32,000 nt of DNA from Promethearchaeum syntrophicum (GTDB taxonomy: Archaea; Asgardarchaeota; Lokiarchaeia; Sigyniarchaeales; Promethearchaeaceae). The stretch covers positions 1,140,001 to 1,172,000 of the forward strand of contig NZ_CP042905.2 of NCBI RefSeq assembly GCF_008000775.2. Direction: 5' to 3'. Below are positions 3,001-24,569 of this stretch, one piece after another. The first letter of the stretch is position 1, and each line of letters begins with the position of its first letter. The position numbers and the translations under genes are program-made. The notes beneath the pieces are model-generated. The model was given only the letters and a program-made list of their open reading frames with translations. It was not told the DNA's origin and searched no databases.

Positions 3001-3450
3001 TTGTGCTTCTTTAGCTTTCTTTTCAATCTCTTCTTCGTCTTGTTTAATTTTTTCTAATCTCTTTTTTTCTTCTACGCGCAGTTTTTCATCTTCAAAGATT
3101 TTTTGTTTGTACGTATTTTCTCCATCTGCTAAGCGATCAGCTTGGTCAAAGTATCCAATATCTCTTAGTTTTTTGCTTCCTTCTCCATAAGTTCTAATAG
3201 CATTTGGATATGGACATTCTAAAGATAGGATTTTGCCCAGATGAACTTGATTTTCATAATAATTAACTACATCTTCGATTTTACTGATATTTGACAATAC
3301 TTCCTTTAATTTCGCTTCTTTCTGAGAGAGAATCTCTAATTCCCTTTGACGTTTTTCTCGTTCCTCTTTTTCTTTGGATTCTCTTAGTTGTTGAGATTCT
3401 TTAGCTAGTTTCTCAATTGCTTCTTCATCTAAACGCTTTTTCATCAGGTT
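1..3450. repeat. In-frame tandem repeat array, 390-bp period, about 9 copies (1, 391, 781, 1171, 1561, 1951, 2341, 2721, 3111)
   Basis: The string agtttttcta/ccttcatcta/acctgtccgc recurs at 1, 391, 781 and 1171, and in diverged form at 1561 and 1951. Copies 1-4 differ by only a handful of bases over their first ~270 nt. Copies 5-9 diverge progressively, and the copy starting at 2341 is 381 bp. Confidence 0.9.
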
Positions 3451-4362
3451 TTCTTCTAGTTTTTTCTTTTCTGATTTTAGTTTTTCTCTTTGTTTAATGG
3501 TTAGGCTAATTTCTTCTTGAACTTCATTTGCTTCTTTTTGCCACCCAATTTTTTTGAAGATCTCTAAAGCTTCTTTATATGCATTCGTAGCTAAATCAAA
3601 TTGGTTTAAATTTCTAAATTGGATTGCTTCATCTAATAATGAAAGAGCTTTATCGCTTTTCGCTTTTTTAAGAAGTTCTTCCTTTTTATGTTCCATCTCA
3701 ATAGATTCTTGTAACCTTTTCTTTTCATCTTCTAATTTCCTTGATAGCTCTATTGTCTTTTGAGTTTCTTTTTGAGCTTCCCAAACTTTTTCGGCTTTTC
3801 TTTCATCATCTTTCAACTTTTTTTTATAATTTTGAAATTTATTTCTAGCATCATTTAATAATTCTAAAGTTCGGTTTACTTCTGCAGACCAGTTTATATT
3901 TTTAAAGTTTTCAAGTGCTTTCGTAAATGAATCTATACCTAATTGATAATCATCTTTTAATAAAGCTTTACTCCCCGTCTCTAAAAGATCATAGGCCTCA
4001 TTTGATAATTTTTCTTCAATTTCTTTCTTTTTCCTTAAAGCCTCTAATTTTTGATTTTTTTCTGCTGTCTTTCTATCTTGAAGTCGTTGACGAGCCGCTT
4101 CTAATTGTTTTTCTTTCTCTTTATTTTCAAGTTTTTTCTGTTCAATTTCCTTTTGTTTTCTAGCACGTTCTTCTTGAATTTTCACTTTTTTGTTAACTTC
4201 TTCAATCATAGATTTAATAGTCCTTACTCTTTCATCCCATCCCAGTTCAGTAGCCATATGTTTAGCTATCTCCAATTTTTGAAGACCTGAAGATATTTTT
4301 TTCTCTTGAATATCCAAATCTGCTTCGATGAGTAATAGATCAATTTTTTCTCGACTTGACAT
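1..4362 (-). CDS. Giant coiled-coil / TPR-like tandem-repeat protein, partial (3' end beyond the left window edge; at least 1,454 codons)
   Basis: ATG is the reverse complement of 4360..4362. Hand translation of the minus strand (codons aligned with position 1) gives MSSREKIDLLLIEADLDIQEKK... I checked every plus-strand triplet in that frame and found no TTA/CTA/TCA down to position 1. The sequence is E/K/R-rich heptad-like, interrupted by helical hairpins (e.g. VGLGKILSLECPYPKAVELYKTGTIKLREAGLIEQADRLDEGRKTY). It is missing from the ORF track only because it has no stop inside the window. Confidence 0.8.
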   Translation of the reverse strand, partial: MSSREKIDLLLIEADLDIQEKKISSGLQKLEIAKHMATELGWDERVRTIKSMIEEVNKKVKIQEERARKQKEIEQKKLENKEKEKQLEAARQRLQDRKTAEKNQKLEALRKKKEIEEKLSNEAYDLLETGSKALLKDDYQLGIDSFTKALENFKNINWSAEVNRTLELLNDARNKFQNYKKKLKDDERKAEKVWEAQKETQKTIELSRKLEDEKKRLQESIEMEHKKEELLKKAKSDKALSLLDEAIQFRNLNQFDLATNAYKEALEIFKKIGWQKEANEVQEEISLTIKQREKLKSEKKKLEENLMKKRLDEEAIEKLAKESQQLRESKEKEEREKRQRELEILSQKEAKLKEVLSNISKIEDVVNYYENQVHLGKILSLECPYPNAIRTYGEGSKKLRDIGYFDQADRLADGENTYKQKIFEDEKLRVEEKKRLEKIKQDEEEIEKKAKEAQILRDEKLRIEKEKRQKELEELSKKESRLKDVLKDISIIEEVISGYESRVGLGKILSLECPYPKAVELYYIGTNKLREIGLIEQADRLEEGGKTYKLKITEDEKLRELEKQRLENIKQEKEEIERKAKEAQKLRDEELNRAKAKRQNELEKLTQKDNQLKEILAKISEMEEAINIMEQQGDFTEAKNRYSEAIELYRISSEKLSEIGFHEHSKLLKDGEVSYKQKLLIFERNQEEKRKHLEYVQKQEEEVEQKAKESLRIKEEKEKEQRERRQKELEAISQKESQLKDVLGDISIIEDVVNEYAREVGLGKILFLECPYPKAVELYNIGTKKLREAGLIEQANRLDEGRKTYESKILEDKKIREREKKRIEKARLDEDEIERKAEEAQRIQELKEKELRDKRQKELEAISQKESKLKDVLGDISKIEDVVNDYAKGVGLGKILSLECPYPKAVELYNIGTKKLREAGLIEQADRLDDGRKTYERKIEEDKGLREREIQRIEKYRLGEEEIEIKAKEAQRLIELKEQELREKRQKELETLSKKESKLKNVLGDLSKIEDVVNVYVKEVGLGKILSLECPYPKAVELYKIGTIKLREAGLIEQADRLDEGRKTYEQKIIEDKRLREREIQRIEKYRLGEEEIEIKAKEAQRLIELKDQELREKRQKELKVLSKKESKLKNVLGDLSKIEDVVNVYVKEVGLGKILSLECPYPKAVELYKTGTIKLREAGLIEQADRLDEGRKTYERKIIEDEKHREREIQRIEKYRLGEEEIEIRAKEAQRLIELKEKELREKRQKELEVLSKKESKLKNVLGDLSKIEDVVNAYIKEVGLGKILSLECPYPKAVELYKIGTIKLREAGLIEQADRLDEGRKTYERKIIEDLKHREREFQRIEKARLDEEEIERKAEEAQRIKELKEQELREKRQKELEVLSKKESKLKNVLGDLSKIEDVVNAYVKEVGLGKILSLECPYPKAVELYKTGTIKLREAGLIEQADRLDEGRKT

Positions 4363-4791: not shown

Positions 4792-7700
4792 ATGGCGAAA
4801 AAATCGTGTAGTAAACACTATAGGTACGTCGCAACTTGTCCGAATTGTAGGGCTGAAAATGACGCCAAAGAACCAGACAAGATTGTAGAGCCCGAAATAC
4901 CTTTATATGGAGATGTTAATGAGGGTGAAGATCGAGCTCCGCCACCAGATCGATTTCAATATATACGTCGTCTTCCTCCAGGTAGTAGAAAACGTTTATT
5001 AATTATCGGAGTGGTTATTGCTATAGTTATTGTGATTATTGGGCTATGGAGTATACCTCTATGGCTGGCTAAGATAAACTTACAACAACAGCTTTATGCA
5101 GTTAAAGGGGGTAATCTTGATTTCTGGGAATTATATACTCTAAATTTTTGGTCAACAAATTTTTTCTTTAATAAAATAGGGTTAATTGGAGCGTTAATTG
5201 GTTGTTTTATTATGTCAATTCCTCCTGAAAACACACTTCTTGCTCTTTTAGGGCGAAAATTTGGATGGGGTGTAATTTCTAAAAAAAAAGTATTCTTATT
5301 ATGGTGGACTGCTGGATTTGCACTTTTCTTTATAATTGGCCAAGCTATGGAAACTGGATATTTTGCATTATCCATGTATATGATCGAAGAAGGAGATACA
5401 TCATTTTCTTTTTTAAAAGCTATCAGTATATTGAATGGTAATTCAAACGTTTCTCAATTGGATGTATTTATCTATAAATCCGTAACTCTTCCGATAATCA
5501 ATTATATTTTAATTTTAATCGCTCTAAGAGTCATAATTTTAATAGTAAAATATTTCCTTTTAAAAGATGAATTCTTGATTGCAGCTCAAGTTAGTTTCTT
5601 AATAGAAATTTTCTTCTTGATGGGATTATTTGGAAAACCCCTTGATACATTAAATGGAATAGATTTTATACAGATATGGAGTATATACCTTGGTTTAATT
5701 ATTTTCCTTGGTGTGGGGATTGCCTTCATGATCATCGGAAAAAGGAGAAGAAGAATCAATATTACTCAATTTCCACGAAATATTCAAAAACAGGCAATTG
5801 TTAGTGCCCTTGCGATAATCATCATTATTTTAATCCCTGTTTTTAGTAGTATTCCAAAAAGTGTAGGGTTAACTCAACAAGAAATTTGGGAGGAAGTTGA
5901 ATGGGATGTAAAATATGAGAAACAAATTGACTGGACCCGACAAGCGGCAGGGATGGAAATTGGCACTAAAGAATTTTTCACCGTGAATGATATTAATGAT
6001 TATCCAGACAATGTCACTGTTGAAGATTTGGATCTCTTGAATGTCATTCGGCGATATGATAAACAAATCTCAGTAAAACAAATGGACCCTATTGCCCAAT
6101 TAACGCATGAGTCCCTCGCAGATAGTGATATCATATTTATTCCTAACGGAACAGGACAAGGAGAATATTGGGTTGCTCCTAAAACAATAAATGTTGATAT
6201 TCTTGATAATTCGGTAAAAATGCATACAGAATTCTATGACCATGTAGAAGGTTTTATTGCATTAGATACTTCCTCTGGGGGTATTGTCGATAATGCCGAA
6301 TTTGAAGCTATTTTTGGAGTTTCAAGTGATCATCCAATTTTCTTTGGTGAACGTGAAGAATCATTCGATACTAGTTCTGTTTTTGACACTACTACGTTTA
6401 TTGAAAAAATTGCGTATGAAAATGATATTTTACTAGGTAGTAATTGGAGTACAACTAACACTTATCGTTATGATATAACCAATGATCTTCCTGATGGGAA
6501 TCTTACTGGGTTACAAGCATTTTGGTTTACATTAGATATGGGTTTAACCTCATATGCACTTGATGGTCAGCTGAAAGAATATTTAATTAACAGAAATATT
6601 CGAACTCGTGTGGAATCCGTATTAATGCCAGGTCTTAGAATAGATGATGATCCGTATTTAGTGTTTGATCGAGAAAATGGGAAAATGTTTTATGCTGTAT
6701 CAATTTTTACCGATATCGAAATTGGCTCCTATACTATGTGTCCTATGTATCGTTTTATGGGTGTTGCTTTAATTGATGTTAAGAGCGGTGAAATATCTTG
6801 GTATAGAAATCCTGGATTACCTGCCTTTACTAATGACAATCTAGGATCTCTTTGGAGTTTATATGCAAATCTTTATCCATGGCAAGATCCTGAAATTTGG
6901 CTCATGAATCAACTTCGTTATCCAGAAACTCTATGGGAAAATCAATTAAAGGTCGATTATATTTATCACGTTACTGAACCAACCACATGGTTTGCTGAGA
7001 ATGATTTTTATGTACTACCTGACAATGGAGATGTGTTCTATATTGAAACGGATTTAGGAGATGGACTCGAATTTGTTGGTGTTCAACTTGTAAAATACAC
7101 TCGTGCTGAAGCATTAAAACTAGCTGGTCTTTACATAATAAGACAAGGAGAACATTTTGGGGAAACATTGTTTTATCAGACACTAAATTCTCTACAAGAT
7201 TTAACTGGACCAAATACCGCATCTGATCAATTTGAAACAGACGCAAGTGAAAGAATAACTCTTATAGGCGATAATAGGTTTGGTAATGTTCTTCTATATC
7301 CCCTCGCAGGTTCTCTTTATTATTTTATCCCCGTTTATTCTGTTTTAGAAGATTATGAAACGTTAGCTTTTATTGGACTTGTGAACGCTTTCAATAAATC
7401 CCTAATAGCATATGGAAATACATTAGCTGAAGCTTATAGTGATTTATCAATTAAACTTGATTTGACAACACCGGTAGAAACTTCATCTGATGATTTAGCA
7501 TTAAATTTGATTTCATATACTGAAGAAATTACCTATGGTGTTGATAATTGGGCAGAATTTAGAACTTTAATTGATTATTTCAATACTACAGAGACTCTTC
7601 CGATGCGAAACCTTACCTTAAACATGACAGTTCGTTCCGCAGTAAATATGAGTGTTAAAGTATCAAATGTGTTAATTCCTGGGATAGAATATGATTTTAC

Positions 7701-7920
7701 GCCCTTAACAACAGCTTTTAATTATACTCTCGCAACTTGGAATGATACAACAGGATTAAACCCTGGCGATTTAGCGGGAATTACAATTAAAATGAACACT
7801 GAAGAAAATTTGGACTCAGATATCTATGTTTATTATAAGTTTGATTTAATTGATATAGATGATCCAACAAAGATATTATCTACCGTCTGGTATTCCATTT
7901 TATGGAATGTAGATGTTTAA
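4792..7920 (+). CDS. UPF0182-family large polytopic membrane protein with an N-terminal zinc-knuckle extension
   Basis: About 1,040 aa. It has an N-terminal block of multiple hydrophobic helices followed by a large soluble region. The region contains LRYPETLWENQLKVDYIYHVTEPTTWF, which resembles the conserved YPEDLF...YHMTDP..FY signature I recall for UPF0182. N-terminal motif: CSKHYRYVATCPNC. The track start at 4747 is TTG, so I prefer the ATG at 4792 (MAKKSC...). Confidence 0.65.
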   Translation: MAKKSCSKHYRYVATCPNCRAENDAKEPDKIVEPEIPLYGDVNEGEDRAPPPDRFQYIRRLPPGSRKRLLIIGVVIAIVIVIIGLWSIPLWLAKINLQQQLYAVKGGNLDFWELYTLNFWSTNFFFNKIGLIGALIGCFIMSIPPENTLLALLGRKFGWGVISKKKVFLLWWTAGFALFFIIGQAMETGYFALSMYMIEEGDTSFSFLKAISILNGNSNVSQLDVFIYKSVTLPIINYILILIALRVIILIVKYFLLKDEFLIAAQVSFLIEIFFLMGLFGKPLDTLNGIDFIQIWSIYLGLIIFLGVGIAFMIIGKRRRRINITQFPRNIQKQAIVSALAIIIIILIPVFSSIPKSVGLTQQEIWEEVEWDVKYEKQIDWTRQAAGMEIGTKEFFTVNDINDYPDNVTVEDLDLLNVIRRYDKQISVKQMDPIAQLTHESLADSDIIFIPNGTGQGEYWVAPKTINVDILDNSVKMHTEFYDHVEGFIALDTSSGGIVDNAEFEAIFGVSSDHPIFFGEREESFDTSSVFDTTTFIEKIAYENDILLGSNWSTTNTYRYDITNDLPDGNLTGLQAFWFTLDMGLTSYALDGQLKEYLINRNIRTRVESVLMPGLRIDDDPYLVFDRENGKMFYAVSIFTDIEIGSYTMCPMYRFMGVALIDVKSGEISWYRNPGLPAFTNDNLGSLWSLYANLYPWQDPEIWLMNQLRYPETLWENQLKVDYIYHVTEPTTWFAENDFYVLPDNGDVFYIETDLGDGLEFVGVQLVKYTRAEALKLAGLYIIRQGEHFGETLFYQTLNSLQDLTGPNTASDQFETDASERITLIGDNRFGNVLLYPLAGSLYYFIPVYSVLEDYETLAFIGLVNAFNKSLIAYGNTLAEAYSDLSIKLDLTTPVETSSDDLALNLISYTEEITYGVDNWAEFRTLIDYFNTTETLPMRNLTLNMTVRSAVNMSVKVSNVLIPGIEYDFTPLTTAFNYTLATWNDTTGLNPGDLAGITIKMNTEENLDSDIYVYYKFDLIDIDDPTKILSTVWYSILWNVDV

Positions 7921-7975
7921 TTTTTTTTTTAAGGTTTTTAAACGATAAAACCTTCAATTTTTAATTCTTTATTTT
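7921..7975 (+). terminator. Putative archaeal terminator: T10 tract plus hairpin plus T-rich tail
   Basis: A T10 run (7921..7930) follows the TAA stop directly. Next comes aaggtttt (7931..7938), an 8-nt loop, aaaacctt (7947..7954), then T-rich sequence. Confidence 0.4.
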
Positions 7976-8040
7976 TTCTCAAATTATATCAAGTAATTTT
8001 TATCTATCTAACCATGGTTTCAACGAAAAAAATTATTCTC

Positions 8041-8661
8041 TTAAAATTTAATATCGTACTCATCATCTATGGTTATTTCCATTTCCGATCTCTCTTCTTC
8101 AAGTAATTCATTGGAAGTATTAAGATTTTTCTTACTTGATTTGATTTTTTTAGTGATCCATTTTTCATCAAAATTGAAAATTTTTTGTCCTTTGATAATT
8201 TGCGAGAAAAATTCACTCTCTATGGATTCAATATATGGATTATCTTTAAGTTTGACGATGAATTCTTTATGATCTTCTTCCTTACGGTGAATCGAAATCA
8301 AATAAATGATTTTTCCATCATCGGAAAGAGCAATGAATAAAACTTGAGGAAATTCTTTATCTAAGAAGTTTGCAAATGATTTTATAAACATATCATCCAA
8401 TGAGGAAAAATTCAAGGGTTTAACAACAATTTTTTCAAAAGAAATTTTTTTTATATTTAAGAATTTTGGATTGAATATTACAGAATATCCTAAGATTACT
8501 TCATTGGATTTTAAACGTTGTAATCGATGATAAATTGTACTGGTTTTCTTATTTAATTCATCAGCCAGCTTTTTCAGACTTTTTCGGGCATCATCTTCTA
8601 AATACTTCAGAATTTCAATATCCAGATCATCAATTTGTTTTTTCATTTTTATTTTTTCCAT
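8041..8661 (-). CDS. Lrp/AsnC-family transcriptional regulator with a long acidic C-terminal extension
   Basis: N-terminus LDIEILKYLEDDARKSLKKLADELNKKTSTIYHRLQRLKSNEVILGYSVIFNP is the typical Lrp/AsnC HTH. At 206 aa it is longer than the usual ~150 aa. Confidence 0.7.
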   Translation of the reverse strand: MEKIKMKKQIDDLDIEILKYLEDDARKSLKKLADELNKKTSTIYHRLQRLKSNEVILGYSVIFNPKFLNIKKISFEKIVVKPLNFSSLDDMFIKSFANFLDKEFPQVLFIALSDDGKIIYLISIHRKEEDHKEFIVKLKDNPYIESIESEFFSQIIKGQKIFNFDEKWITKKIKSSKKNLNTSNELLEEERSEMEITIDDEYDIKF

Positions 8662-8807
8662 AAATTTCTGTAAATTCTTTAATAAAAACTTGTAATTTCT
8701 CTAATAAAAATTTGTTTATTTATAATTTTAAGTTATGTTTTTTGCAATTTTTCTAAAATAAAAATAAGAAAGTTGAAAAGTTTGTAAAAAAAAGATGAAA
8801 AAAAATC

Positions 8808-10247
8808 TTATTCCTTTAAAATTTCCATTTTTCGAAGTTTTTCTTTAAATTTCTCGATATCTTGTAATCTTTCTCGTTTTGCTTTTTCGTGCGCCTCTAA
8901 TTCTTTAGGATCGATTTTAAATAAGGTAACCCCTTTTCCGATATTTTTCATCAGTTCTTCTAAAACATCTAGTTTATTTTTAACATTACTTAACTTTTGT
9001 AACCTTTGATTCTTGGCAGTCTCATATTCTTTAAGGTCTTCTTCATTAATTCTACTCAAAGGAATTTCATTAGAAATAGTATTTACTAATTCTTCAGCAA
9101 CATCCAGATGATTCTTAAGAACTTGGATTCTTGATCTCCTTTGGAATCTCTCTGCTTCATATTTTTGTAATTCTTCATTAGAAATATGCTCTAAACTTGG
9201 CGCTTCTTGAATTTCTTTCAAAAGCTGATTTGAAATATCGAACTTTGCTTTTATATTCTCTTTTGTTCTTTTTACCTCTGCTATTCTTTTTAATTTTTCC
9301 TGTTCATATTCCTTTTTATCTTCTTCAGCAATAGGTTTTAATGATACTCCTTTCATCTCAACAAAAAGTTGTTCTACTTTATTTAGTTTTGCTTGGATAC
9401 CAGTTAATTCTTCAAGTTTTTCTGTTTTATTCTTTGAAATTTTCTTTAAGTAATTATCTGCTATTTCAAATTTTTCTAAAAATTCAATTTTCATCTCTTC
9501 TGGTAGATCTGGTTTAATTTCTTTTGCAATCTCCTCAACTAGTTCAATGATAACCTCCATTTTAGTCTTAATTTTGCTAACATCCTTCATACGCCGTTTT
9601 CTATCCTTCGCGAGTTCTTTTAATTCTTTTTCGTCTACGGGATTTAGCTTTAACTCTTTGCTTGAGATTTCTTCTAAAATATTACCAAATTGATTTAAAT
9701 GAAAATTTGCTTCATTTAAAGTTTTTAATCTCTTTTGCTTTTCTTCCTCATATTTTTGTATTTCTTTCTGATCAATTTTTTCAAGTTGTTCAATTGGATT
9801 TTGTGAAATCTCCTCTAAGATTGTTGAGAAAGATTTCAATTTTTCAATTGCGTTTTGTTTTTCTTTCTGATATTTCTTTAGATCATCTTCATCGACTTTT
9901 TTAAGTTGTGGAGCCTGGCTAATCTCTTCTAGGAGAGTTTGAGTGTGATCAACAGTTTCTTTTAATTTTAAGAATTTTTCTCTTCTCTCTTGTTTATACT
10001 TTTCATATTCTCCTTTTTCTTTTAAATCAATTGCTTTTAGTTGTATTTTACCTTCCAATAATTCTTCCATCATATCTTTTGCATTATCGTACAATAGTTT
10101 AACGTCGTCAATCTTCTTCATTCTCTCTTTTCGTTTTTCTTCATAAATTTGCTTCTCATCCGCGTTAATCCCTACTAAATTCACTTTTTTTTCTAATAAT
10201 TCCTTCTGAAGATCCTTTATTTTTTTTTTTTCTTCTTCTTCGACCAT
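8808..10247 (-). CDS. Coiled-coil protein with about 10 degenerate 40-48-aa repeats
   Basis: 479 aa and E/K-rich. A unit like LLEEIsxxPxLxx(I/V)DxxELxKYExEKxxRLxxL recurs (e.g. LLEEISQAPQLKKVDEDDLKKYQKEKQ, ILEEISQNPIEQLEKIDQKEIQKYEEEKQKR, LLKEIQEAPSLEHISNEELQKYEAERFQR). Confidence 0.7.
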   Translation of the reverse strand: MVEEEEKKKIKDLQKELLEKKVNLVGINADEKQIYEEKRKERMKKIDDVKLLYDNAKDMMEELLEGKIQLKAIDLKEKGEYEKYKQERREKFLKLKETVDHTQTLLEEISQAPQLKKVDEDDLKKYQKEKQNAIEKLKSFSTILEEISQNPIEQLEKIDQKEIQKYEEEKQKRLKTLNEANFHLNQFGNILEEISSKELKLNPVDEKELKELAKDRKRRMKDVSKIKTKMEVIIELVEEIAKEIKPDLPEEMKIEFLEKFEIADNYLKKISKNKTEKLEELTGIQAKLNKVEQLFVEMKGVSLKPIAEEDKKEYEQEKLKRIAEVKRTKENIKAKFDISNQLLKEIQEAPSLEHISNEELQKYEAERFQRRSRIQVLKNHLDVAEELVNTISNEIPLSRINEEDLKEYETAKNQRLQKLSNVKNKLDVLEELMKNIGKGVTLFKIDPKELEAHEKAKRERLQDIEKFKEKLRKMEILKE

Positions 10248-10375: not shown

Positions 10376-11101
10376 TTATTCCCAATAATTTGGCTCGTCA
10401 CTATTTAAGGCTTCTGTGCTTCCAGTTTTCATGGTTTCTTCACACACCCCGCAAACGTAGTACTTAAATATCGTCATCACAATATGATTATGATTTATGG
10501 GTTTTTTTTTGTTCAAAATTGAGTAATATTCAATTTCTTCATCCTTGTAGTCTGTAGATACGGGATTTCCGTTAATATCCGTTATTTTCACAATACTTTG
10601 GATTTCTAGATTCCCCATTGAAGATCTAAAAGCGAGATTATCGTCCTCAATTGGTATGTTTTCTAAAATTTTTCCCGCCCAATCAGGAGTAAATTCCCTT
10701 ATATTTTCGGGAATTTTATTATTATTGACATCATCTATAAAATTTTGGAGGTTTTGTTGTAATTCTTTTATTGTAATCCATTCATTCTCTTTCCCATTTT
10801 CTTTTAGAGCAAAATCACTTAATTCATCAATTCTGGGGATAGTTTGAATAATATTTTCTTCGCTGTGATTAATTTGAAAGAGGGTATAGGATTCTGGATA
10901 ATCTTTTGTATCCTCATACAGATCATTTAAAAATTTTTGAAATTCTGTTAATATCATCTTATATTTCTGGTTATAGGTTGCAATTTGGGTTTTTATTTCT
11001 TCTTGGATTGATTTTATATCAAATTGAGCTAAAATTTCTTTTTTAGACCTCCCACAATAATAACAGACTTCCTTTTTAGCTTTTTTGATAATTTCAATCA
11101 T
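10376..11101 (-). CDS. Hypothetical protein with terminal CxxC pairs (possible split zinc ribbon)
   Basis: 241 aa with an ATG start. CYYC lies near the N-terminus and CGVC near the C-terminus, with an acidic middle. I recognise no family. Confidence 0.55.
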   Translation of the reverse strand: MIEIIKKAKKEVCYYCGRSKKEILAQFDIKSIQEEIKTQIATYNQKYKMILTEFQKFLNDLYEDTKDYPESYTLFQINHSEENIIQTIPRIDELSDFALKENGKENEWITIKELQQNLQNFIDDVNNNKIPENIREFTPDWAGKILENIPIEDDNLAFRSSMGNLEIQSIVKITDINGNPVSTDYKDEEIEYYSILNKKKPINHNHIVMTIFKYYVCGVCEETMKTGSTEALNSDEPNYWE

Positions 11102-11205: not shown

Positions 11206-11862
11206 TTACACTCTTTTTCCAAATATTGCAGTTCCAATACGAACCATGTTTCCACCTTCCGCAATTGCAACTCTATAATCTCCAGACATTCCCATGCTTA
11301 AAATATCAAGATTATAATCTTTTTTGTATTTATCAAATAATGTTTTCATTTTTTTGAAAAAATTCTTTGAATTTTCATTAAAAGGGGGGATACACATTAA
11401 TCCTCGGAGTTTAAGGTTTTTTAAAGATTTAATATGCTCCACTAAGTCAAAAAGGTTCTCTTGGTTAATTCCGCCTTTGCTTATTTCAGCTCCGATATTT
11501 ATCTCAATTAAAATTGGCATTATTTTTTTTAATTCTGCACATGCATTATTTAACTTTTGTGCAAGTTTGATTGAATCAATTGATTGAATCATGTCAAAAT
11601 ATTGTGCAGCGAGCTTTACTTTATTAGATTGAAGGTGTCCGATGAAATGCCATTTTATCTCCTTCAAATTTTTTAATTTATTAATTTTTGGGATAGCGTC
11701 TTGAATATAATTTTCTCCAAAGTCTCTCTGTCCTAAATTATATGCCTCTTCAATGAGTTCAACTGGTTTTTTCTTGGAAACTGCAACGAGTTTTACATTT
11801 TCGGGAATTTTCAGGTTTTCTATGTTTTTTCCAATATTACTTGGTAAATTTTTATCTTCCAA
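11206..11862 (-). CDS. yggS: YggS/PROSC-family PLP-binding protein
   Basis: VKLVAVSKKKP (PLP lysine context), FGENYIQD, HFIGHLQSNK and C-terminal MVRIGTAIFG are all typical of YggS. The start codon is TTG, with no upstream in-frame ATG. Confidence 0.85.
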   Translation of the reverse strand: MEDKNLPSNIGKNIENLKIPENVKLVAVSKKKPVELIEEAYNLGQRDFGENYIQDAIPKINKLKNLKEIKWHFIGHLQSNKVKLAAQYFDMIQSIDSIKLAQKLNNACAELKKIMPILIEINIGAEISKGGINQENLFDLVEHIKSLKNLKLRGLMCIPPFNENSKNFFKKMKTLFDKYKKDYNLDILSMGMSGDYRVAIAEGGNMVRIGTAIFGKRV

Positions 11863-11907: not shown

Positions 11908-12525
11908 TTATTTCTTTTTTTGAAAAAAATAATCCAGAAATCCAAATTTATATTTTGAATCGAGCTCCAATCGATGAATAAATTTCTTCTGTTTTTCTAG
12001 AATATGCACATCTTTTAGCATGATTTCACATTCCTCTTCAGTTAAAAGAGTATGGATAACTTTTTCTCCATCAAAAATTTCAACATATTCACCCGGTGCT
12101 AGTTCTTCTGCACTTTTATGGAGATCGTCATCAATATCTAAAAAATTTATAAACCCAATACCACCAGGTTTAAGAATTCGAATCATTTCATTAACAGCTT
12201 GATGAATTTCTTTTTTAGTCATATGGAAAATAGTATTGTAAGAGTATACAGCATCAAAAGAATTATCTTCAAATGGAATTTCTTTCATATTTGCTTTTTG
12301 CAGGTTAATTTCAATATTATTTTCCTTAGCAAATTGCTTCGCTGACTCTAAGGAATCATCAGAAATATCAATTCCATATAAATCCTTATATCCGTATTTT
12401 GCTAAAAGCCCTAATTTAGGGTATCGCCCCCCTGCACCACAATCAAGGATTTTATTTCCAACTTCTTTCTGTTTTAAAAACCACAAAAAATCATATATTT
12501 CTGTTGTGAATTCATTTCGATTCAT
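11908..12525 (-). CDS. Class I SAM-dependent methyltransferase
   Basis: ILDCGAGGR (motif I), LYGIDISD (motif II acidic residue) and FDAVYSYNTIFHM match a Methyltransf_11/25-like layout. It lies 37 bp downstream of the nucleotidyltransferase gene. Confidence 0.8.
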   Translation of the reverse strand: MNRNEFTTEIYDFLWFLKQKEVGNKILDCGAGGRYPKLGLLAKYGYKDLYGIDISDDSLESAKQFAKENNIEINLQKANMKEIPFEDNSFDAVYSYNTIFHMTKKEIHQAVNEMIRILKPGGIGFINFLDIDDDLHKSAEELAPGEYVEIFDGEKVIHTLLTEEECEIMLKDVHILEKQKKFIHRLELDSKYKFGFLDYFFQKKK

Positions 12526-12562
12526 AAATCTAAACCTCTAATAACTCAATTATTAATTTTAA

Positions 12563-13285
12563 TTATAATTTCTTTTGAATTTGCTTTGCTAAATTTAAAT
12601 CATCAAGCGTATCAATTTCCATGCAAAATTCATTTACAATATCCAAAGGGATCAAATTTATTGTATCTGAGATCTCATTAAAAGCATTTTCAGCATAACA
12701 AGAAGTATTATTGTTTTTTACGAATTTCTCAATATTATTCATCCATAATTCAAAGTCTTCTTTAGTCCAATAATAAAGAGGGAGTAGGAATATGGCTTTT
12801 TCTCCAAATACGTCAATTCCAATTTTTGTTATTTTTCCATTTTGGATTAATCCCTTAAAATCCTTTTCAGGTAATGGGGTTGCTCGATCAACGATAGCGG
12901 AACTTTTTTTTTGTTTGACTATTTTTTGAATCACAGATTTTTCAAACACTAAATCTCCATGTAATAGAAGAATATCGTCATCATTGATTTCACTTCTCGC
13001 CAGCCACATTGAATAAATATAATTTGTAGATTCGAATTTTGGATTATTGGGATATATTACATCTAATTCGGGGAATTTTTCGTTTACATGATTAATTATT
13101 TTATCTTGTAAAGGACCAGTGGTGATAATATATTTTTTTACTCCGACTGATAATAATAATTCAATCTGGCGCTGTAAAATCGATTTTCCGTTTATTTCTA
13201 ATAAACATTTTGGCAAATTATCTGTTAAAGGTTTCAATCTGCGCGCTAAACCAGAATTTAAGATTAATGCTTTCATAGGTTTCAT
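12563..13285 (-). CDS. LicC/GlmU-type nucleotidyltransferase (candidate phosphonate or phospho-alcohol cytidylyltransferase)
   Basis: N-terminus KALILNSGLARRLKPLTDNLPKCLLEINGKSIL is the NTP-transferase signature (G-x-G-x-R-L...P-K). 240 aa. Confidence 0.75.
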   Translation of the reverse strand: MKPMKALILNSGLARRLKPLTDNLPKCLLEINGKSILQRQIELLLSVGVKKYIITTGPLQDKIINHVNEKFPELDVIYPNNPKFESTNYIYSMWLARSEINDDDILLLHGDLVFEKSVIQKIVKQKKSSAIVDRATPLPEKDFKGLIQNGKITKIGIDVFGEKAIFLLPLYYWTKEDFELWMNNIEKFVKNNNTSCYAENAFNEISDTINLIPLDIVNEFCMEIDTLDDLNLAKQIQKKL

Positions 13286-13300
13286 CTTTGATATTTATCT

Positions 13301-14470
13301 TTATAATAGTGTATGTAAAATTTTCCTTAATTTGTCTTCAGTTAATTTTCTGGGATTGTGCTTCACACGATCGGGAGTAAACCCTTCAGCGATTATCAAT
13401 TCAATTCCTTTCTTATCTATTCCAACTTCATGCAATTTAGTGGGTAAATTAAGAGTTGTCATCAAATTTGTTATCATCTGTGCAGCATTATCAGGTGAAT
13501 CTGCTCCAATCGCATCTGAGATTTTCCTTAACCGATCAGGGGCTTCATCTATGTTATTTTCAGTTTTTTCAGAATTGAATAAAAGAAATTGACTAAGTGT
13601 CAATGCACAAGCTAGTCCATGAGGGACATTGAAATGTAATGTAATTGGATAAGAGACTGAATGAACCGCAGTAGTTTTTGTATTGCTAAATGCTAAACCA
13701 GATAATAAACTTCCAAATGCTAGATTTTTTCGGATGTCAATATTTGAAGGATCTTTGAAAATCTCTTGGAGATTTGAAAATATAATAGGAATTGCTTGCA
13801 AAGCATAAATATCAGAAATCTTATTATGGTTTTTTGACCAATAAGCTTCAATAGCTTGACTGAATGCATCCAATCCCGTAATAACTGACATTTTTTTCGG
13901 TAAACTTTTGACTAGCGTTGGATCAATAATAGCACCTTTTGCATACATCTTAAGGTCAGATAAAGAATACTTTTTTTGCTTTTCTCCCAAATCCCAGACT
14001 GTAGCCCATCGAGTAACTTCAGAACCGGTTCCGGATGTTGTAGGTACTTCTATCAAAGGAATTCCATAATTTTCAAGAGTTTTACCTTCTTTAAGATACA
14101 GATTAATACTCCCTGGATTATTTCCTAATATTGCCATACATTTAGCAGTATCCATGGCGGATCCTCCTCCAATTCCAATTATTAAATTGTAATTCTTATT
14201 CCTGACTAAATTTGCTCCATTATCAATAATCTTTATCGAGGAGAAATATCCTTCTTTTTCAAAAATCTCAACTATAAAACCATCTTTTTCTAATAATTCA
14301 AGAATTTTTTCGGAAATTCCCAAAATATTTAGAAGGTTTTTATCAGTGACAATAAGTATCTTAGCATTTTTTATACTTTTTGTATATTTTTGAACAATCT
14401 CGGAAATATTTAGTAGTGAATTTATTCCAAATAGGACTTCCACCGGATTGTAATAAGTTTTCAATGTCAT
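13301..14470 (-). CDS. Group III iron-containing alcohol dehydrogenase (candidate phosphonoacetaldehyde reductase)
   Basis: GIGGGSAMDTAK and PTTSGTGSEVT motifs are present. It sits immediately downstream of ppd. The track start at 14479 is TTG, and the first ATG (MTLKTYYNP...) is at 14470. Confidence 0.8.
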   Translation of the reverse strand: MTLKTYYNPVEVLFGINSLLNISEIVQKYTKSIKNAKILIVTDKNLLNILGISEKILELLEKDGFIVEIFEKEGYFSSIKIIDNGANLVRNKNYNLIIGIGGGSAMDTAKCMAILGNNPGSINLYLKEGKTLENYGIPLIEVPTTSGTGSEVTRWATVWDLGEKQKKYSLSDLKMYAKGAIIDPTLVKSLPKKMSVITGLDAFSQAIEAYWSKNHNKISDIYALQAIPIIFSNLQEIFKDPSNIDIRKNLAFGSLLSGLAFSNTKTTAVHSVSYPITLHFNVPHGLACALTLSQFLLFNSEKTENNIDEAPDRLRKISDAIGADSPDNAAQMITNLMTTLNLPTKLHEVGIDKKGIELIIAEGFTPDRVKHNPRKLTEDKLRKILHTLL

Positions 14471-14503
14471 CTTTATCAATTTTCAATTTTTTTTTTTTTT
14501 ACT

Positions 14504-15631
14504 TTAATCTTGAAGAAATTTCATAAAATAGTCTTTATTTTGAATTGGAGTAGTGGTAGGTCTTCCCAAATCATCTCGTGAGCCTTTTTTGACTTTAATA
14601 ATTAACATTGATGGTCCTTTTCCATCTTCCTTGAACATCTTATTTAATGCAATTTTCAATTCTTCTTTATTATTTGCTTGATAAACTGAAGTATAGCCAC
14701 TTCCAAGACAAATTTCTTTGAAATTGATGGTATCTGAGACAGTAGGTTGTCCCCCTGTAGATTCATGAGCATTGTTATCAATTAATATATGGAAAAAGTT
14801 CTCTGGATGATAGTGTCCAATAGTAGTTAGTGCACCAAGCTGCATAATTAATGCGCCATCACCATCTAATACAACAGTTTTTTTCTTTGAATTCAATGCT
14901 ATGCCTAAAGCGATTGAAGAAGTGCATCCCATCGAACCTACTGTGTAGAAATCGCGTGGATTTTCTCCTCTCGCAATTCTTAACTCAAAAATTTCTCGAG
15001 AAGTTTTACCTGTTGTTGAAACAATAACCTCGTCACCAGTGAAGGATTCAATTATTGTTTTTAATGCTTCTTCCCTCGTCATTTCATAAGTAATTTCTTT
15101 TCTTTTTGTACTAGTAAAAGGTTCAATTATGTTTTTTTTTACAATCAAAGCATAGGGTTTTTTATTGTCCTTAAAGAAAATTGAAATTTTTTGTAGTACC
15201 TGCTCAAATTCTGATAGAGTTTCTGGTAAATAACTATAGGGAATTTCTAGTGCTTCTAAAATAGGTATCATAACTCTTCCCATTTTTTTATGTTGAGGTT
15301 CATCCTTCTTACCTGGTTCACCCCTCCATCCAATCATTAATAATATTGGTATAGAATATACTTCAAAATCTGCCAGAGAAGTAATAGGATTGACCGTTTT
15401 TCCAAATCCAGAATTTTGCATATATACAACTCCAACATTTTTTGTTGCTAAATGATAACCTGAAGCAATAGCCACTGCTTCACACTCATTACAAGCAATA
15501 ATATTTTTCAATTCATTTCCATTATTTTCATCTAAATAGGTCATCCACGCTTTAAAAGTTGAATCAGGAACACCCGTAAAGAAAGAAAAATTGTGTTTTT
15601 TAAAACCATTCCAAATTTCATTACAATTCAT
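14504..15631 (-). CDS. ppd: Phosphonopyruvate decarboxylase (ThDP-dependent)
   Basis: It has N-terminal FFTGVPDS and the ThDP motif GDGALIMQLGALTTIGHYHPENFFHILIDNN. At ~375 aa it is typical of Ppd/ComDE, and it lies 18 bp downstream of pepM. The track start at 15640 is GTG, and the first ATG is at 15631. Confidence 0.8.
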   Translation of the reverse strand: MNCNEIWNGFKKHNFSFFTGVPDSTFKAWMTYLDENNGNELKNIIACNECEAVAIASGYHLATKNVGVVYMQNSGFGKTVNPITSLADFEVYSIPILLMIGWRGEPGKKDEPQHKKMGRVMIPILEALEIPYSYLPETLSEFEQVLQKISIFFKDNKKPYALIVKKNIIEPFTSTKRKEITYEMTREEALKTIIESFTGDEVIVSTTGKTSREIFELRIARGENPRDFYTVGSMGCTSSIALGIALNSKKKTVVLDGDGALIMQLGALTTIGHYHPENFFHILIDNNAHESTGGQPTVSDTINFKEICLGSGYTSVYQANNKEELKIALNKMFKEDGKGPSMLIIKVKKGSRDDLGRPTTTPIQNKDYFMKFLQD

Positions 15632-15649
15632 ATTATTCACACCAGCACT

Positions 15650-16945
15650 TCAAATTGGTATTAAATCAAGTATTTCTTTAATCGAGATACAATATTTATC
15701 AGAAGCTTCTTTCGCTCTATGATTTGTTAAAATTGATTTTGCGGTTTTCAGCATATTCGGATATGCACTTCTGAGAAGCTGATTTGCATAAATTACAACT
15801 TTAATTCCTGCACTTATTAATTCTTCTTCAGTAATTTGGGAATATGTGCTTGGAACAACAACTAACGGAACTTTATCTTTTAAATTATTGTAATTTTTAC
15901 AAAAAGTTAGAATCTCATCAGGATTATCTTCTTTACTATGAATCATAATACCATCAGCTCCCGCCTTGATATATGCTTTAGCGCGTTTCAAAGCATCTTC
16001 TTGACCTTGTTTAAGTATAAGACTTTCAATTCGTGCAATAATCATAAAGTCTTTAGTTACTTGGGCTTTTTTTCCTGAATTGATTTTAGTAGAGAAGTTT
16101 TCAATGGTATCTTGACGTTGAACTACATCAGTTCCAAATAGAGAATTTCTCTTCATACCCACTTTATCTTCAATAATAACTGCTGAAATCCCCAATCTTT
16201 CTAAAGTTTTAACGGTATATAAAAAATGTTCAACTAATCCCCCATTGTCTGCATCAACAATCATTGGTTTGGTTGTTACATCGAGAATTTCATTAATTGT
16301 CCTTATTCTTGACGTAATATCGACGCACCCCGTATCCGGTTTACCTTTAGAGGTAGAATCTGTTAAACTACTCTCCCACATCCCATCAAACTCTCTAAAA
16401 GATTCTCCTTCATAAATACCCGTTAATTCCGCAATTCTTCCTGTTAATCCATTATGTGTTTCGAGTATTCTAACAATAGGTTTCATTTGAATAAGTGTTC
16501 TTAGTTTCTTAAGTCGCTTTTCTGGCGTGGTCCCTACTCCAAATTTATCTTTAATTAATTGTCCAGAGTTTAATCCTTCTGTGAATTCTGGTTCAATCAA
16601 ATTTCCATCCCATTCTTTTAAAACTTCTATTACCTGCAATCTAGTATTCTTTAAAGGACCTTCTTTCCAATCATCACCGTGGACTACATATTCTGGTTTG
16701 ATTTTTCTTAAATTCTCACTATAGTCTAAAGAATTCTGGGGGATTATTTCTGATACTCCTTGAATATTTTCAATGACCTCCTTTCTCTGTTGATAATTTA
16801 AAACGGGAAGTCGTTTGTATGTAGCAATCGCTTCATCTGTAAGCAACCCTATTATAACTTGACCGAGTTTCCTTGCTTCTTTAATGATTCGAAGATGTCC
16901 CGGATGTATGAAATCAGCTGAAAGTGCAACATAAACCTTTGTCAT
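15650..16945 (-). CDS. pepM: Bifunctional cytidylyltransferase (HxGH type) - phosphoenolpyruvate mutase fusion
   Basis: The N-terminal ~135 aa (YVALSADFIHPGHLRIIKEARKLG) show the TagD-like HxGH nucleotidyltransferase motif. The C-terminal ~290 aa contain ETHNGLTGRIAE, MWESSLTDS and VDADNGG. They also carry the PepM-diagnostic EDKVGMKRNS (EDKX5NS) at 16142..16171, verified at the nucleotide level. The track start at 16957 is TTG, and the ATG is at 16945. Confidence 0.85.
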   Translation of the reverse strand: MTKVYVALSADFIHPGHLRIIKEARKLGQVIIGLLTDEAIATYKRLPVLNYQQRKEVIENIQGVSEIIPQNSLDYSENLRKIKPEYVVHGDDWKEGPLKNTRLQVIEVLKEWDGNLIEPEFTEGLNSGQLIKDKFGVGTTPEKRLKKLRTLIQMKPIVRILETHNGLTGRIAELTGIYEGESFREFDGMWESSLTDSTSKGKPDTGCVDITSRIRTINEILDVTTKPMIVDADNGGLVEHFLYTVKTLERLGISAVIIEDKVGMKRNSLFGTDVVQRQDTIENFSTKINSGKKAQVTKDFMIIARIESLILKQGQEDALKRAKAYIKAGADGIMIHSKEDNPDEILTFCKNYNNLKDKVPLVVVPSTYSQITEEELISAGIKVVIYANQLLRSAYPNMLKTAKSILTNHRAKEASDKYCISIKEILDLIPI

Positions 16946-17033
16946 ATTTTCTATCAAGCAATCATTGAAAAAAAAGTTTCAACATTTATTGCATGGATCA
17001 AAGAATTTTAGGAATGAAAAATGATAGTAATAT

Positions 17034-17990
17034 ATGATTTCCTTTGACGATATTCAAAATGCTTATGAAAGAATTAAAAAAAATGTCAATCACACCCCAA
17101 TTGTAACTTCCAGAACTTTAAATGACATGACTAAAGCTCAAATATCCCTTAAATGTGAAAATATGCAAAGAGTAGGTGCATTCAAATTTAGAGGTGCGTA
17201 TAATGCCTTAAGCCAATTAAGTGAAGAGGAGAAGGAACGAGGTGTAATTACACATTCAAGTGGAAATCATGCTCAAGCTGTAGCTCTCGCATCGAAAATT
17301 CTCGGAATTCAAGCTACAATTGTAATGCCTAACACGTCCCCTTTGTGTAAAGTAAATGCAACAAGAAAAACGTATGAAGCCAATGTTGTATTTTGTCAAA
17401 ATTCTCAAGATTCAAGACGTCAAACAACTGAAAAATTAATCGAAAAAAACAATTATACTCTTATTCATCCATATGATAACGATAATGTAATTGCGGGAGC
17501 TGGAACCGCAGCTTTGGAATTTTTAAATGAAAAACCTAATTTAGATGTGATAATGGCCCCAGTTGGAGGGGGTGGGTTATTATCGGGTTCTTCAATTGCT
17601 GTTAAAGGATTTAATCCAAAAATTATAGTTTATGGAGCAGAACCATTGAATGCCGATGATGCTTATCGGTCATTCAATTCAGGACAAGTTGAAATTAATG
17701 AAGATCCAGATACCATAGCAGATGGATTGCGAACTACTCTCTGTGAAAGGACTTTACAGATAATAAAGGAGAATGTTGATGAAATTTTCTTAGTAAGTGA
17801 ACAAGAAATTATTGAAGCCATGGAGTTTGTGTGGACAAGAATGAAAATTATTATTGAGCCTTCCAGTGCTGTTCCAATTGCTGCAATTCTGTCTGGAAAA
17901 GTGCCCATTGAAAATAAGAAAGTTGGAATTATAATAAGTGGTGGAAATTTTAATTTATCTGAATTTTTTGATGAATTTAAAAAGTTATAA
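17034..17990 (+). CDS. Fold-type II PLP enzyme, serine racemase / threonine ammonia-lyase family
   Basis: KCENMQRVGAFKFRGAYNAL (PLP lysine), THSSGNHAQAVALAS and APVGGGGLLSG are present. 318 aa with no ACT regulatory domain. Confidence 0.8.
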   Translation: MISFDDIQNAYERIKKNVNHTPIVTSRTLNDMTKAQISLKCENMQRVGAFKFRGAYNALSQLSEEEKERGVITHSSGNHAQAVALASKILGIQATIVMPNTSPLCKVNATRKTYEANVVFCQNSQDSRRQTTEKLIEKNNYTLIHPYDNDNVIAGAGTAALEFLNEKPNLDVIMAPVGGGGLLSGSSIAVKGFNPKIIVYGAEPLNADDAYRSFNSGQVEINEDPDTIADGLRTTLCERTLQIIKENVDEIFLVSEQEIIEAMEFVWTRMKIIIEPSSAVPIAAILSGKVPIENKKVGIIISGGNFNLSEFFDEFKKL

Positions 17991-23672: not shown

Positions 23673-24569
23673 TTAAACTTGGTAATTCCATTCAAATTTT
23701 TTTGCGACAAGTCGCTGAATTTGCGAAATTAAAACGATTAAGGTTAAAATGCTAATAGGTAGAATTATATATATCAAATTTACTAAATCAAATAATGTTA
23801 AGATAACTAAAGTGGTTAAACTGGCTGCACCGCCTATAAACGACCATAAATTAATCAAAGGAGAAAAATATTTTTCAAAAACTTGCTCCTTTTCAATTTT
23901 TGATAAATAATGTCTGTCAATTGATGAATACATAGGAGAAGAAATATCTGGAAATTTGGTTAAATATTTAAATAAATTCTCTGGCTTGTTTAGAACTTTT
24001 TTTAAAAGAACAATCAATTTTGAAGATGATTTTTTAGAAAGTTTTTCGACCGCTTCTTTCTTTCCAGACAAAGCATTTAGATATTGAGATTTCGCTTTTT
24101 CAAACATAAGTTCTCCGATTGCTACAGAAATCGCCATTAAGATATAAAAAAGATAATATATTGAATTATTTTCTAATTGTGCCATAGAAAATGCCATACT
24201 AAGAGTCATTAATATAAAACCTATAATATCAGCATAGAAATCGTATTGTCCACCAAATTTTGAGAATTGATTTGTAAGCCTTGCAAGGCTACCGTCTACG
24301 CAATCTAATGTTTGTTTTACAAAAAGAAGAATGGCTGCCCAATATATCATACTTTGTGAGTAAAAATAGGCTGAAATTAACATAGTTATTAGTGATAATG
24401 TTGTAAAAAAATTAGGAGTGAGTTTAAGCTTTTTACCCAATAAAACCAACGGGAATCCCAAAGGTCGATAAAGAACTGAATTTATCACCTCACTAACTTT
24501 CTTGGTTGTTTTCTTATAATCCACTGATATACCAATCAAAGACTCGTTTAATTGAACCGTTAGCGCCAT
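23673..24569 (-). CDS. CDP-alcohol phosphatidyltransferase family membrane protein
   Basis: The complete signature D-x2-DG-x2-AR-x8-G-x3-D-x3-D is present as DCVDGSLARLTNQFSKFGGQYDFYAD (about 24228..24305). Multiple TM helices. Confidence 0.8.
   Translation of the reverse strand: MALTVQLNESLIGISVDYKKTTKKVSEVINSVLYRPLGFPLVLLGKKLKLTPNFFTTLSLITMLISAYFYSQSMIYWAAILLFVKQTLDCVDGSLARLTNQFSKFGGQYDFYADIIGFILMTLSMAFSMAQLENNSIYYLFYILMAISVAIGELMFEKAKSQYLNALSGKKEAVEKLSKKSSSKLIVLLKKVLNKPENLFKYLTKFPDISSPMYSSIDRHYLSKIEKEQVFEKYFSPLINLWSFIGGAASLTTLVILTLFDLVNLIYIILPISILTLIVLISQIQRLVAKKFEWNYQV

Follow-up and report, generated by a model that had tools for sequence, protein, structure and literature searches.

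The DNA analysed here, a window of 32,000 nucleotides (32 kb) from the genome of Promethearchaeum syntrophicum MK-D1, is AT-rich (G+C content ~30%) and carries, between positions 11908 and 16957, five closely packed open reading frames (ORFs) that all lie co-directionally on the minus strand. These genes encode a predicted phosphonate biosynthesis pathway headed by a protein in which a cytidylyltransferase (CyTase) is fused to a phosphoenolpyruvate (PEP) mutase (PepM). An earlier note on this DNA had read the genome as probably Asgard, which is borne out by the organism, and the product of the fourth gene is 100% identical to a P. syntrophicum protein at NCBI. The five genes, and the two domains of the first, are as follows:

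15650-16945, minus strand: CyTase-PepM, bifunctional and Fom1-like, 431 aa, ATG start
nt 16556-16936, minus strand: CyTase domain of that protein, approximately residues 4-130, Pfam CTP_transf_like (PF01467), E 5e-15
nt 15653-16528, minus strand: PepM domain of that protein, approximately residues 140-431, Pfam PEP_mutase, E 3e-53
14504-15631, minus strand: Ppd, thiamine diphosphate (ThDP)-dependent phosphonopyruvate decarboxylase, 375 aa
13301-14470, minus strand: group III iron-dependent alcohol dehydrogenase (Fe-ADH), predicted phosphonoacetaldehyde reductase, 389 aa
12563-13285, minus strand: stand-alone LicC/PntC-fold nucleotidyltransferase (NTase), fourth gene, 240 aa
11908-12525, minus strand: class I S-adenosylmethionine (SAM)-dependent methyltransferase, fifth gene, 205 aa

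Gene starts follow those called independently on a 15-kb contig of identical sequence (L001; Logan assembly, run DRR199588), giving intergenic gaps of 18, 33, 15, and 37 bp in gene order. The five co-directional genes that the earlier note had placed here, 15-37 bp apart, are thus present where claimed, and gaps of this size fit their putative co-transcription as a single transcript. Within the coordinates it had given, 11908-16957, the ORFs and all of the quoted motifs were found in place, but the start of pepM was moved. Position 16957 is a TTG upstream of the ATG at 16945, and starting there yields a protein of 435 aa; as the ATG-start protein matched one Logan contig exactly, whereas the 435-aa version matched none, 16945 was adopted as the start.

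Identification of the first gene product as a PepM was assessed using curated family models and sequence motifs. The protein scored 382.5 bits against TIGR02320, the PEP mutase equivalog model (cutoff 319.55, E 9e-115), while the models of sister families remained well under their own cutoffs, at 152 bits for phosphonopyruvate hydrolase (cutoff 374), 94 bits for methylisocitrate lyase (cutoff 354), and 51 bits for carboxyPEP mutase (cutoff 420). These scores rule out all three sister families for gene 1, and the grouping with carboxyPEP mutase or methylisocitrate lyase that had been named as a possible failure of the PepM call was not seen. The sequence EDKVGMKRNS at nt 16142-16171 (residues 263-272 of the 435-aa ORF) matches EDKX5NS, the motif used as the criterion separating PepM from other isocitrate-lyase-superfamily enzymes (PMC6697681); WESSLTDS and VDADNGG are present at 16355-16378 and 16238-16258, respectively, and the PepM domain is ~36% identical to the solved PepM 5unc. 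By these marks gene 1 is a true PEP mutase, as previously claimed, and is predicted to catalyze the conversion of PEP to phosphonopyruvate. At the N-terminus, the HxGH motif of the CyTase domain is present as HPGH at 16895-16906 (residues 18-21). The best match of gene 1 in the PDB is the CyTase domain of Fom1 (5x3d, E 4.5e-47), with which 72 of 127 residues are identical (57%) in a gap-free alignment. According to PMC6697681, which cites Cho 2017 on this point, the Fom1 CyTase domain has been shown to form CMP-2-hydroxyethylphosphonate (CMP-HEP) from 2-hydroxyethylphosphonate (HEP) and cytidine triphosphate (CTP). Among known Ppm proteins, 23.6% are fusions with PF01467 (PMC6697681). The identity to Fom1, together with the adjoining Fe-ADH gene, suggests HEP as the substrate of the CyTase domain.

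The second gene product scored 446 bits against TIGR03297, the Ppd equivalog (cutoff 312.5, E 9e-134), and contains the ThDP motif GDG-x26-NN. Sulfopyruvate decarboxylase (ComE-like) is ruled out for this gene by the curated scores, which were 136 bits for the beta subunit model (cutoff 221.5) and 82 bits for the alpha (cutoff 148), and the decarboxylase is Ppd, as had been proposed. The call of a group III Fe-ADH as the third gene likewise stands: its product matches the Pfam families Fe-ADH (E 2e-39) and ADH_Fe_C (E 2e-42), and the gene occupies the same slot in relatives. GGGS, D204, H273, and H287 are invariant in the family, and ligand position 208 (392-aa ORF numbering) is Gln, not the usual second metal-ligand His (50 of 67 orthologues).

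To place the cassette in a wider context, we compared it with 81 loci that encode a fused PepM (59-92% identity) and come from Bacteroidota, Marinimicrobia, Patescibacteria, Clostridia, Proteobacteria, Woesearchaeota, Thermoplasmatota, and others. In 78 of them, Ppd is the gene immediately after PepM, and the order fused PepM, Ppd, and orthologous Fe-ADH is found in 66, spread over many phyla. Five loci, all of the Clostridium type, have an Aminotran_5 protein of the 2-aminoethylphosphonate (AEP) transaminase (AEPT) type in the slot of the Fe-ADH, and no locus has both. Of the evidence at hand, this mutual exclusion in gene order speaks most strongly for the Fe-ADH as the mark of the predicted branch to HEP. 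No gene of the AEP transaminase family (PhnW-type Aminotran_5) was found among the ORFs of the 32-kb window, in agreement with the earlier note, and its choice of HEP rather than AEP as the predicted core is supported by the distribution across the 81 loci. Of the Fe-ADH loci, 51 include 6 kb or more of sequence downstream, and 26 of these have LicD (PF04991) or TagF-like Glyphos_transf (PF04464) nearby, which points to decoration of a surface glycoconjugate.

The nearest PepM sequences are from Promethearchaeum metagenome-assembled genomes (MAGs; 88-92% identity), Candidatus Lokiarchaeum ossiferum (75%), and a Heimdallarchaeaceae MAG (70%). In a rough neighbour-joining tree without support values, the Lokiarchaeial sequences fall together, near other Asgard-like and DPANN sequences. 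The unit conserved in Asgard archaea consists of four genes, PepM, Ppd, Fe-ADH, and NTase, and is present in three Promethearchaeum MAGs, the complete L. ossiferum genome, the Heimdallarchaeaceae MAG, and GCA_030603365.1. In the last of these (locus L087), whose PepM clusters with the Heimdallarchaeaceae sequence in the same rough, unsupported tree, the cassette lies amid genes for LicD, GT1 and GT2 glycosyltransferases, epimerases, NeuB, a CMP-sugar synthetase, and sulfotransferases. LicD occurs at the Heimdallarchaeaceae locus (L084) as well, and the L. ossiferum neighbourhood has neither LicD nor glycan genes.

The fourth gene product matches the Pfam families NTP_transferase and NTP_transf_3, and its AlphaFold model has a pLDDT of 95.2. 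A Foldseek search with this model returned as top folds LicC (1jyk), a phosphocholine cytidylyltransferase, and PntC-AEPT (6pd2), the PntC domain of the AEP cytidylyltransferase Tde1415, with a TM score of 0.84 and an E of ~1e-17 for each. The NTase is the predicted second cytidylyltransferase of the cassette on the strength of this modelled fold, which spans the entire protein. Its gene directly follows the Fe-ADH in loci L002, L083, L084, L085, L087, L088, L011, and L021, and at least 10 NTase homologues from Asgard and DPANN archaea lie on contigs that match in size those with a fused PepM, examples being contigs of 31,177, 46,880, 68,641, and 466,756 bp and the 6.27-Mb L. ossiferum contig. 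In characterized enzymes of this fold, the substrate amine or ammonium is contacted by Glu104 (Tde-PntC) or Asp105 (LicC) (PMC6697681). The residue that aligns with these positions in the NTase is His109, which is invariant in 30 of 30 homologues (by sequence alignment only), while the adjacent metal-binding Asp (D111) is retained. A His at this position would fit an uncharged substrate, such as a hydroxy-phosphonate.

Taken together, these observations make it likely that the five-gene region holds a functional Fom1/Fom2/FomC-type cassette for early phosphonate synthesis that supplies CMP-HEP to a surface glycoconjugate. From the enzyme families, motifs, gene order, and conservation described above, we infer a pathway in which the PepM domain would convert PEP to phosphonopyruvate, and Ppd would decarboxylate this to phosphonoacetaldehyde and CO2, pulling the unfavourable mutase equilibrium forward. 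The Fe-ADH would then reduce phosphonoacetaldehyde to HEP, which the Fom1-like N-terminal domain of gene 1 would join to CTP to give CMP-HEP. In the last step, CMP-HEP may serve as the donor for a phosphonyl transferase whose gene lies outside the window (relatives have a LicD or TagF-like enzyme), the predicted outcome being a cell-surface glycoconjugate decorated with phosphonate. The same three-enzyme logic, from PEP through phosphonopyruvate and phosphonoacetaldehyde to HEP and CMP-HEP, starts fosfomycin biosynthesis in Streptomyces wedmorensis (Fom1, Fom2, and FomC), where the first protein has the same domain architecture as the product of gene 1. In contrast to the fosfomycin cluster, the window adds a LicC/PntC-fold NTase, its host is an anaerobic Asgard archaeon, and it has no Fom3, Fom4, or FomD, and thus no route to fosfomycin. 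The earlier note had run the pathway from PepM through Ppd and Fe-ADH to HEP, and while its enzyme families hold, it left the CyTase domain unused; because this domain is 57% identical to that of Fom1, the most likely end point of the pathway is an activated donor, CMP-HEP, rather than free HEP. A catabolic reading of the locus was rejected, as PepM together with Ppd points in the biosynthetic direction.

Several points weigh against this interpretation. The Fe-ADH falls below the equivalog cutoff of TIGR03405 (Phn_Fe-ADH; 253.2 vs 423.7 bits), although this is its top-scoring NCBIfam model all the same, and its solved relatives are generic alcohol dehydrogenases; as the cutoff is missed, phosphonoacetaldehyde is assigned as its substrate from gene context only. 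Fused PF01467 domains are also found in AEP/AEPT clusters (PMC8942020), so that HEP specificity of the CyTase domain is a prediction from sequence likeness. A Pfam search of the ORFs in the 32-kb window found no member of the LicD family, nor any other transferase for CMP-HEP. The presence of two cytidylyltransferases for one small product also counts against it. Pairs of such enzymes in Ppm neighbourhoods, as well as triple fusions, are on record (PMC6697681, PMC8942020).

The methyltransferase encoded by the fifth gene matches the Pfam families Methyltransf_11 and Methyltransf_25, and its best match in the PDB is 2p8j (E 7e-49), a protein of unknown function. The gene is missing between NTase and YggS in L002, L085, and L088. 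In L088, the 145-bp NTase-YggS spacer holds at 14407-14504 a remnant of ~100 bp from the 5' end of the methyltransferase gene, encoding its first 22-33 residues in two frames. This remnant is a deletion scar, and the methyltransferase was therefore ancestral at this spot in the genus and deleted in L088. In other Lokiarchaeia, orthologues with 56-64% identity are found in four different contexts, all without pepM. Because sister genomes lack the gene or keep a decayed remnant, and its orthologues lie away from pepM, we rejected it as a conserved member of the cassette; it is probably a passenger rather than a dedicated tailoring enzyme. Of the "tailoring genes" in the earlier note, the NTase does belong to the conserved cassette, but the methyltransferase, lost in sister genomes, probably does not. 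Two specific roles for it were also rejected: no match to DhpI was found at E < 1e-3 to suggest a phosphonate O-methyltransferase, and its similarity to phosphoethanolamine N-methyltransferases (PEAMT) is confined to the SAM-binding core. One orthologue, in Ca. L. ossiferum (L089, 8001-10570 of CP163304.1; 62% identity), adjoins an APH/choline-kinase-like gene and has a second class I methyltransferase beside it, an arrangement suggestive of a module for phospho-base methylation that has no relation to pepM.

Other end products of the same early pathway were considered. One is a phosphonolipid head group in place of a glycan decoration, formed either by a CDP-alcohol-type phosphotransferase that uses CMP-HEP or with the HEP hydroxyl as the acceptor for CDP-archaeol. 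A CDP-alcohol phosphatidyltransferase gene does lie at 23673-24569 on the minus strand, ~6.7 kb from pepM, and is syntenic at ~5-7 kb from pepM in L085 and L088; in addition, clusters of Burkholderiales pair two PntCs with phospholipid genes (PMC8942020). However, genes for a thermosome subunit, a leucine-rich repeat (LRR) protein, a TauE exporter, and an AlaX-like protein intervene between the transferase and the cassette, and the transferase is not in the L. ossiferum, Heimdallarchaeaceae, or L087 neighbourhoods, while L084 and L087 have LicD instead, and L087 has glycan genes as well. No curated lipid synthase model scored above cutoff for the transferase, the best being archaetidylinositol-phosphate synthase at 52 bits (cutoff 180). 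A link between this enzyme and a phosphonolipid is possible but unsupported, and we consider the lipid product unlikely.

Improbable to a somewhat greater degree is an amino-phosphonate end product, AEP or N-methylated AEP, made with a remotely encoded transaminase, activated by the NTase, and methylated by the adjacent methyltransferase, with the Fe-ADH serving as a side branch or salvage step. The best structural matches of the NTase, which are phosphocholine and AEP cytidylyltransferases, would suit such a product, as would the weak similarity (E ~1e-10) of the methyltransferase to phosphoethanolamine N-methyltransferases and the choline-kinase-like neighbour of its L. ossiferum orthologue. 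Against these stand the lack of a transaminase in the window, the mutual exclusion of Fe-ADH and AEPT across the 81 related loci, the invariant His that the NTase has in place of the amine-contacting Glu or Asp of PntC and LicC, and the dispensability of the methyltransferase in sister genomes. A diffusible bioactive phosphonate, whether fosfomycin-like, another HEP-derived antibiotic, or methylphosphonate as in Nitrosopumilus, is very improbable. Homologues of Fom1, Fom2, and FomC perform the first steps toward fosfomycin, and HEP is a precursor of phosphinothricin, dehydrophos, and methylphosphonate (PMC8942020). However, no gene for Fom3 (radical SAM), Fom4/HppE, FomD, an MpnS/HEPD cupin, a nonribosomal peptide synthetase (NRPS), or an ATP-grasp enzyme was found among the ORFs of the 32-kb window, and in relatives the cassette is found together with LicD, TagF, and glycan genes. 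MpnS and HEPD also require O2, and MK-D1 is a strict anaerobe, which counts further against such a product.

The preferred outcome, transfer of HEP from CMP-HEP to a surface glycoconjugate, has counterparts in bacterial systems. The Pnt clusters with PntC (Treponema denticola Tde1415 and Atopobium rimae Ari1348; Rice et al. 2019, PMC6697681) have in common with this locus a nucleotidyl activation for surface tailoring, and the stand-alone NTase of the window has the same PntC/LicC fold. An arrangement of two cytidylyltransferases in one Ppm neighbourhood, with one of them fused to Ppm, is known as well (PMC8942020). Unlike the window, PntC systems use AEPT and activate AEP, whereas here an Fe-ADH stands in place of AEPT and the NTase has its invariant His where Tde-PntC has Glu104 and LicC has Asp105. 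The same outcome as predicted here is seen in the HEP conjugate of Stackebrandtia nassauensis, a bacterial exopolysaccharide that bears HEP (cited in PMC8942020); in that type of system a PhpC-type Fe-ADH makes the HEP that is attached to polysaccharide, whereas the present host is an archaeon, and the predicted acceptor and transferase are not in its window. Methylphosphonate synthesis in Nitrosopumilus maritimus is also an archaeal route from pepM and ppd through an Fe-ADH and HEP, but it needs the O2-dependent MpnS, which is not in the window, and the PepM of the window is a Fom1-type fusion. In a survey of Ppm neighbourhoods, the HEP branch accounted for 8.5%, and Ppm was found in 1.6% of archaeal RefSeq genomes (PMC8942020).

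The same-strand run continues beyond the methyltransferase, with a YggS gene after a gap of 45 bp and a gene for a 241-aa hypothetical protein after a further 104 bp. Two neighbours of the cassette are:

11206-11862, minus strand: YggS-family pyridoxal phosphate (PLP) protein, 3' of the methyltransferase
17034-17990: PALP gene

Both are syntenic within the genus only and were rejected as pathway members, as neither lies beside the cassette in L. ossiferum, Heimdallarchaeaceae, or L087. The 241-aa protein (10376-11101, minus strand) has no Pfam or NCBIfam match, carries N- and C-terminal Cys pairs (CYYC and CGVC), and is kept 3' of YggS in Promethearchaeum loci at 62-90% identity. In L. ossiferum (L082/L083), genes for a 323-aa NTP_transferase protein (8692-9663) and an MFS transporter (7380-8705) are divergent from pepM, and MK-D1 is without both. 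Elsewhere, the window encodes the thermosome subunit and LRR protein mentioned above and a RING-finger protein of 647 aa (29577-31520, minus strand), whose C-terminal RING finger (zf-RING_2, E 1e-6) is a eukaryote-like domain of the ubiquitin-ligase type. A 479-aa E/K-rich, coiled-coil-like protein (8808-10247, minus strand) has a periodic motif of ~40 residues and no Pfam match, and its synteny is kept in loci L085 and L088 of Promethearchaeum. Running past the left edge of the window is a giant repeat protein rich in E and K (1-4362, minus strand; >1454 aa); it contains long, near-identical tandem repeats, such as KESKLKNVLGDLSKIEDVVNAY.KEVGLGKILSLECPYPKAVELYK.GTIKLREAGLIEQADRLDEGRKT, and its TPR-like Pfam matches are all sub-threshold.

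A literature search on phosphonates in Asgard archaea and Lokiarchaeota found no description of an Asgard phosphonate pathway; a cold-seep survey merely states that phosphonate biosynthetic gene clusters occur in six archaeal phyla (PMC11051675). The cassette is thus new for Asgard archaea, while its chemistry and the type of cassette are already known. The novelty claimed in the earlier note is to be narrowed in this sense: no Asgard pathway is described in the literature searched, but HEP and CMP-HEP are known compounds and the PepM, Ppd, and Fe-ADH trio is widespread, its relatives being already named in public annotation. We raise only tentatively, and as possible though doubtful, a broader proposal in which Asgard archaea, the two cultured strains MK-D1 and L. 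ossiferum among them, decorate envelope glycans, proteins, or lipids with HEP, and in which the NTase is a new, hydroxy-phosphonate-specific branch of PntC that acts beside the Fom1-type domain. If true, this would be the first case of a carbon-phosphorus (C-P) compound among the archaea most closely related to eukaryotes, and would establish a new specificity for cytidylyltransferases. The pair of a Fom1-type and a His-variant PntC-type enzyme in one four-gene cassette is a small model in which to ask why two cytidylyltransferases are encoded in many pepM clusters. Anaerobic sediment archaea (the Asgards and, on the basis of homology, DPANN) would also join the producers of HEP, which is one of the main phosphonates in marine organic matter (PMC8942020). 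The chemistry of the Asgard envelope is almost unknown, and it is this envelope that mediates the syntrophic contacts central to models of eukaryote origin; the locus predicts that a C-P signal, specifically that of HEP, would be present in envelope hydrolysates of the two cultured strains.

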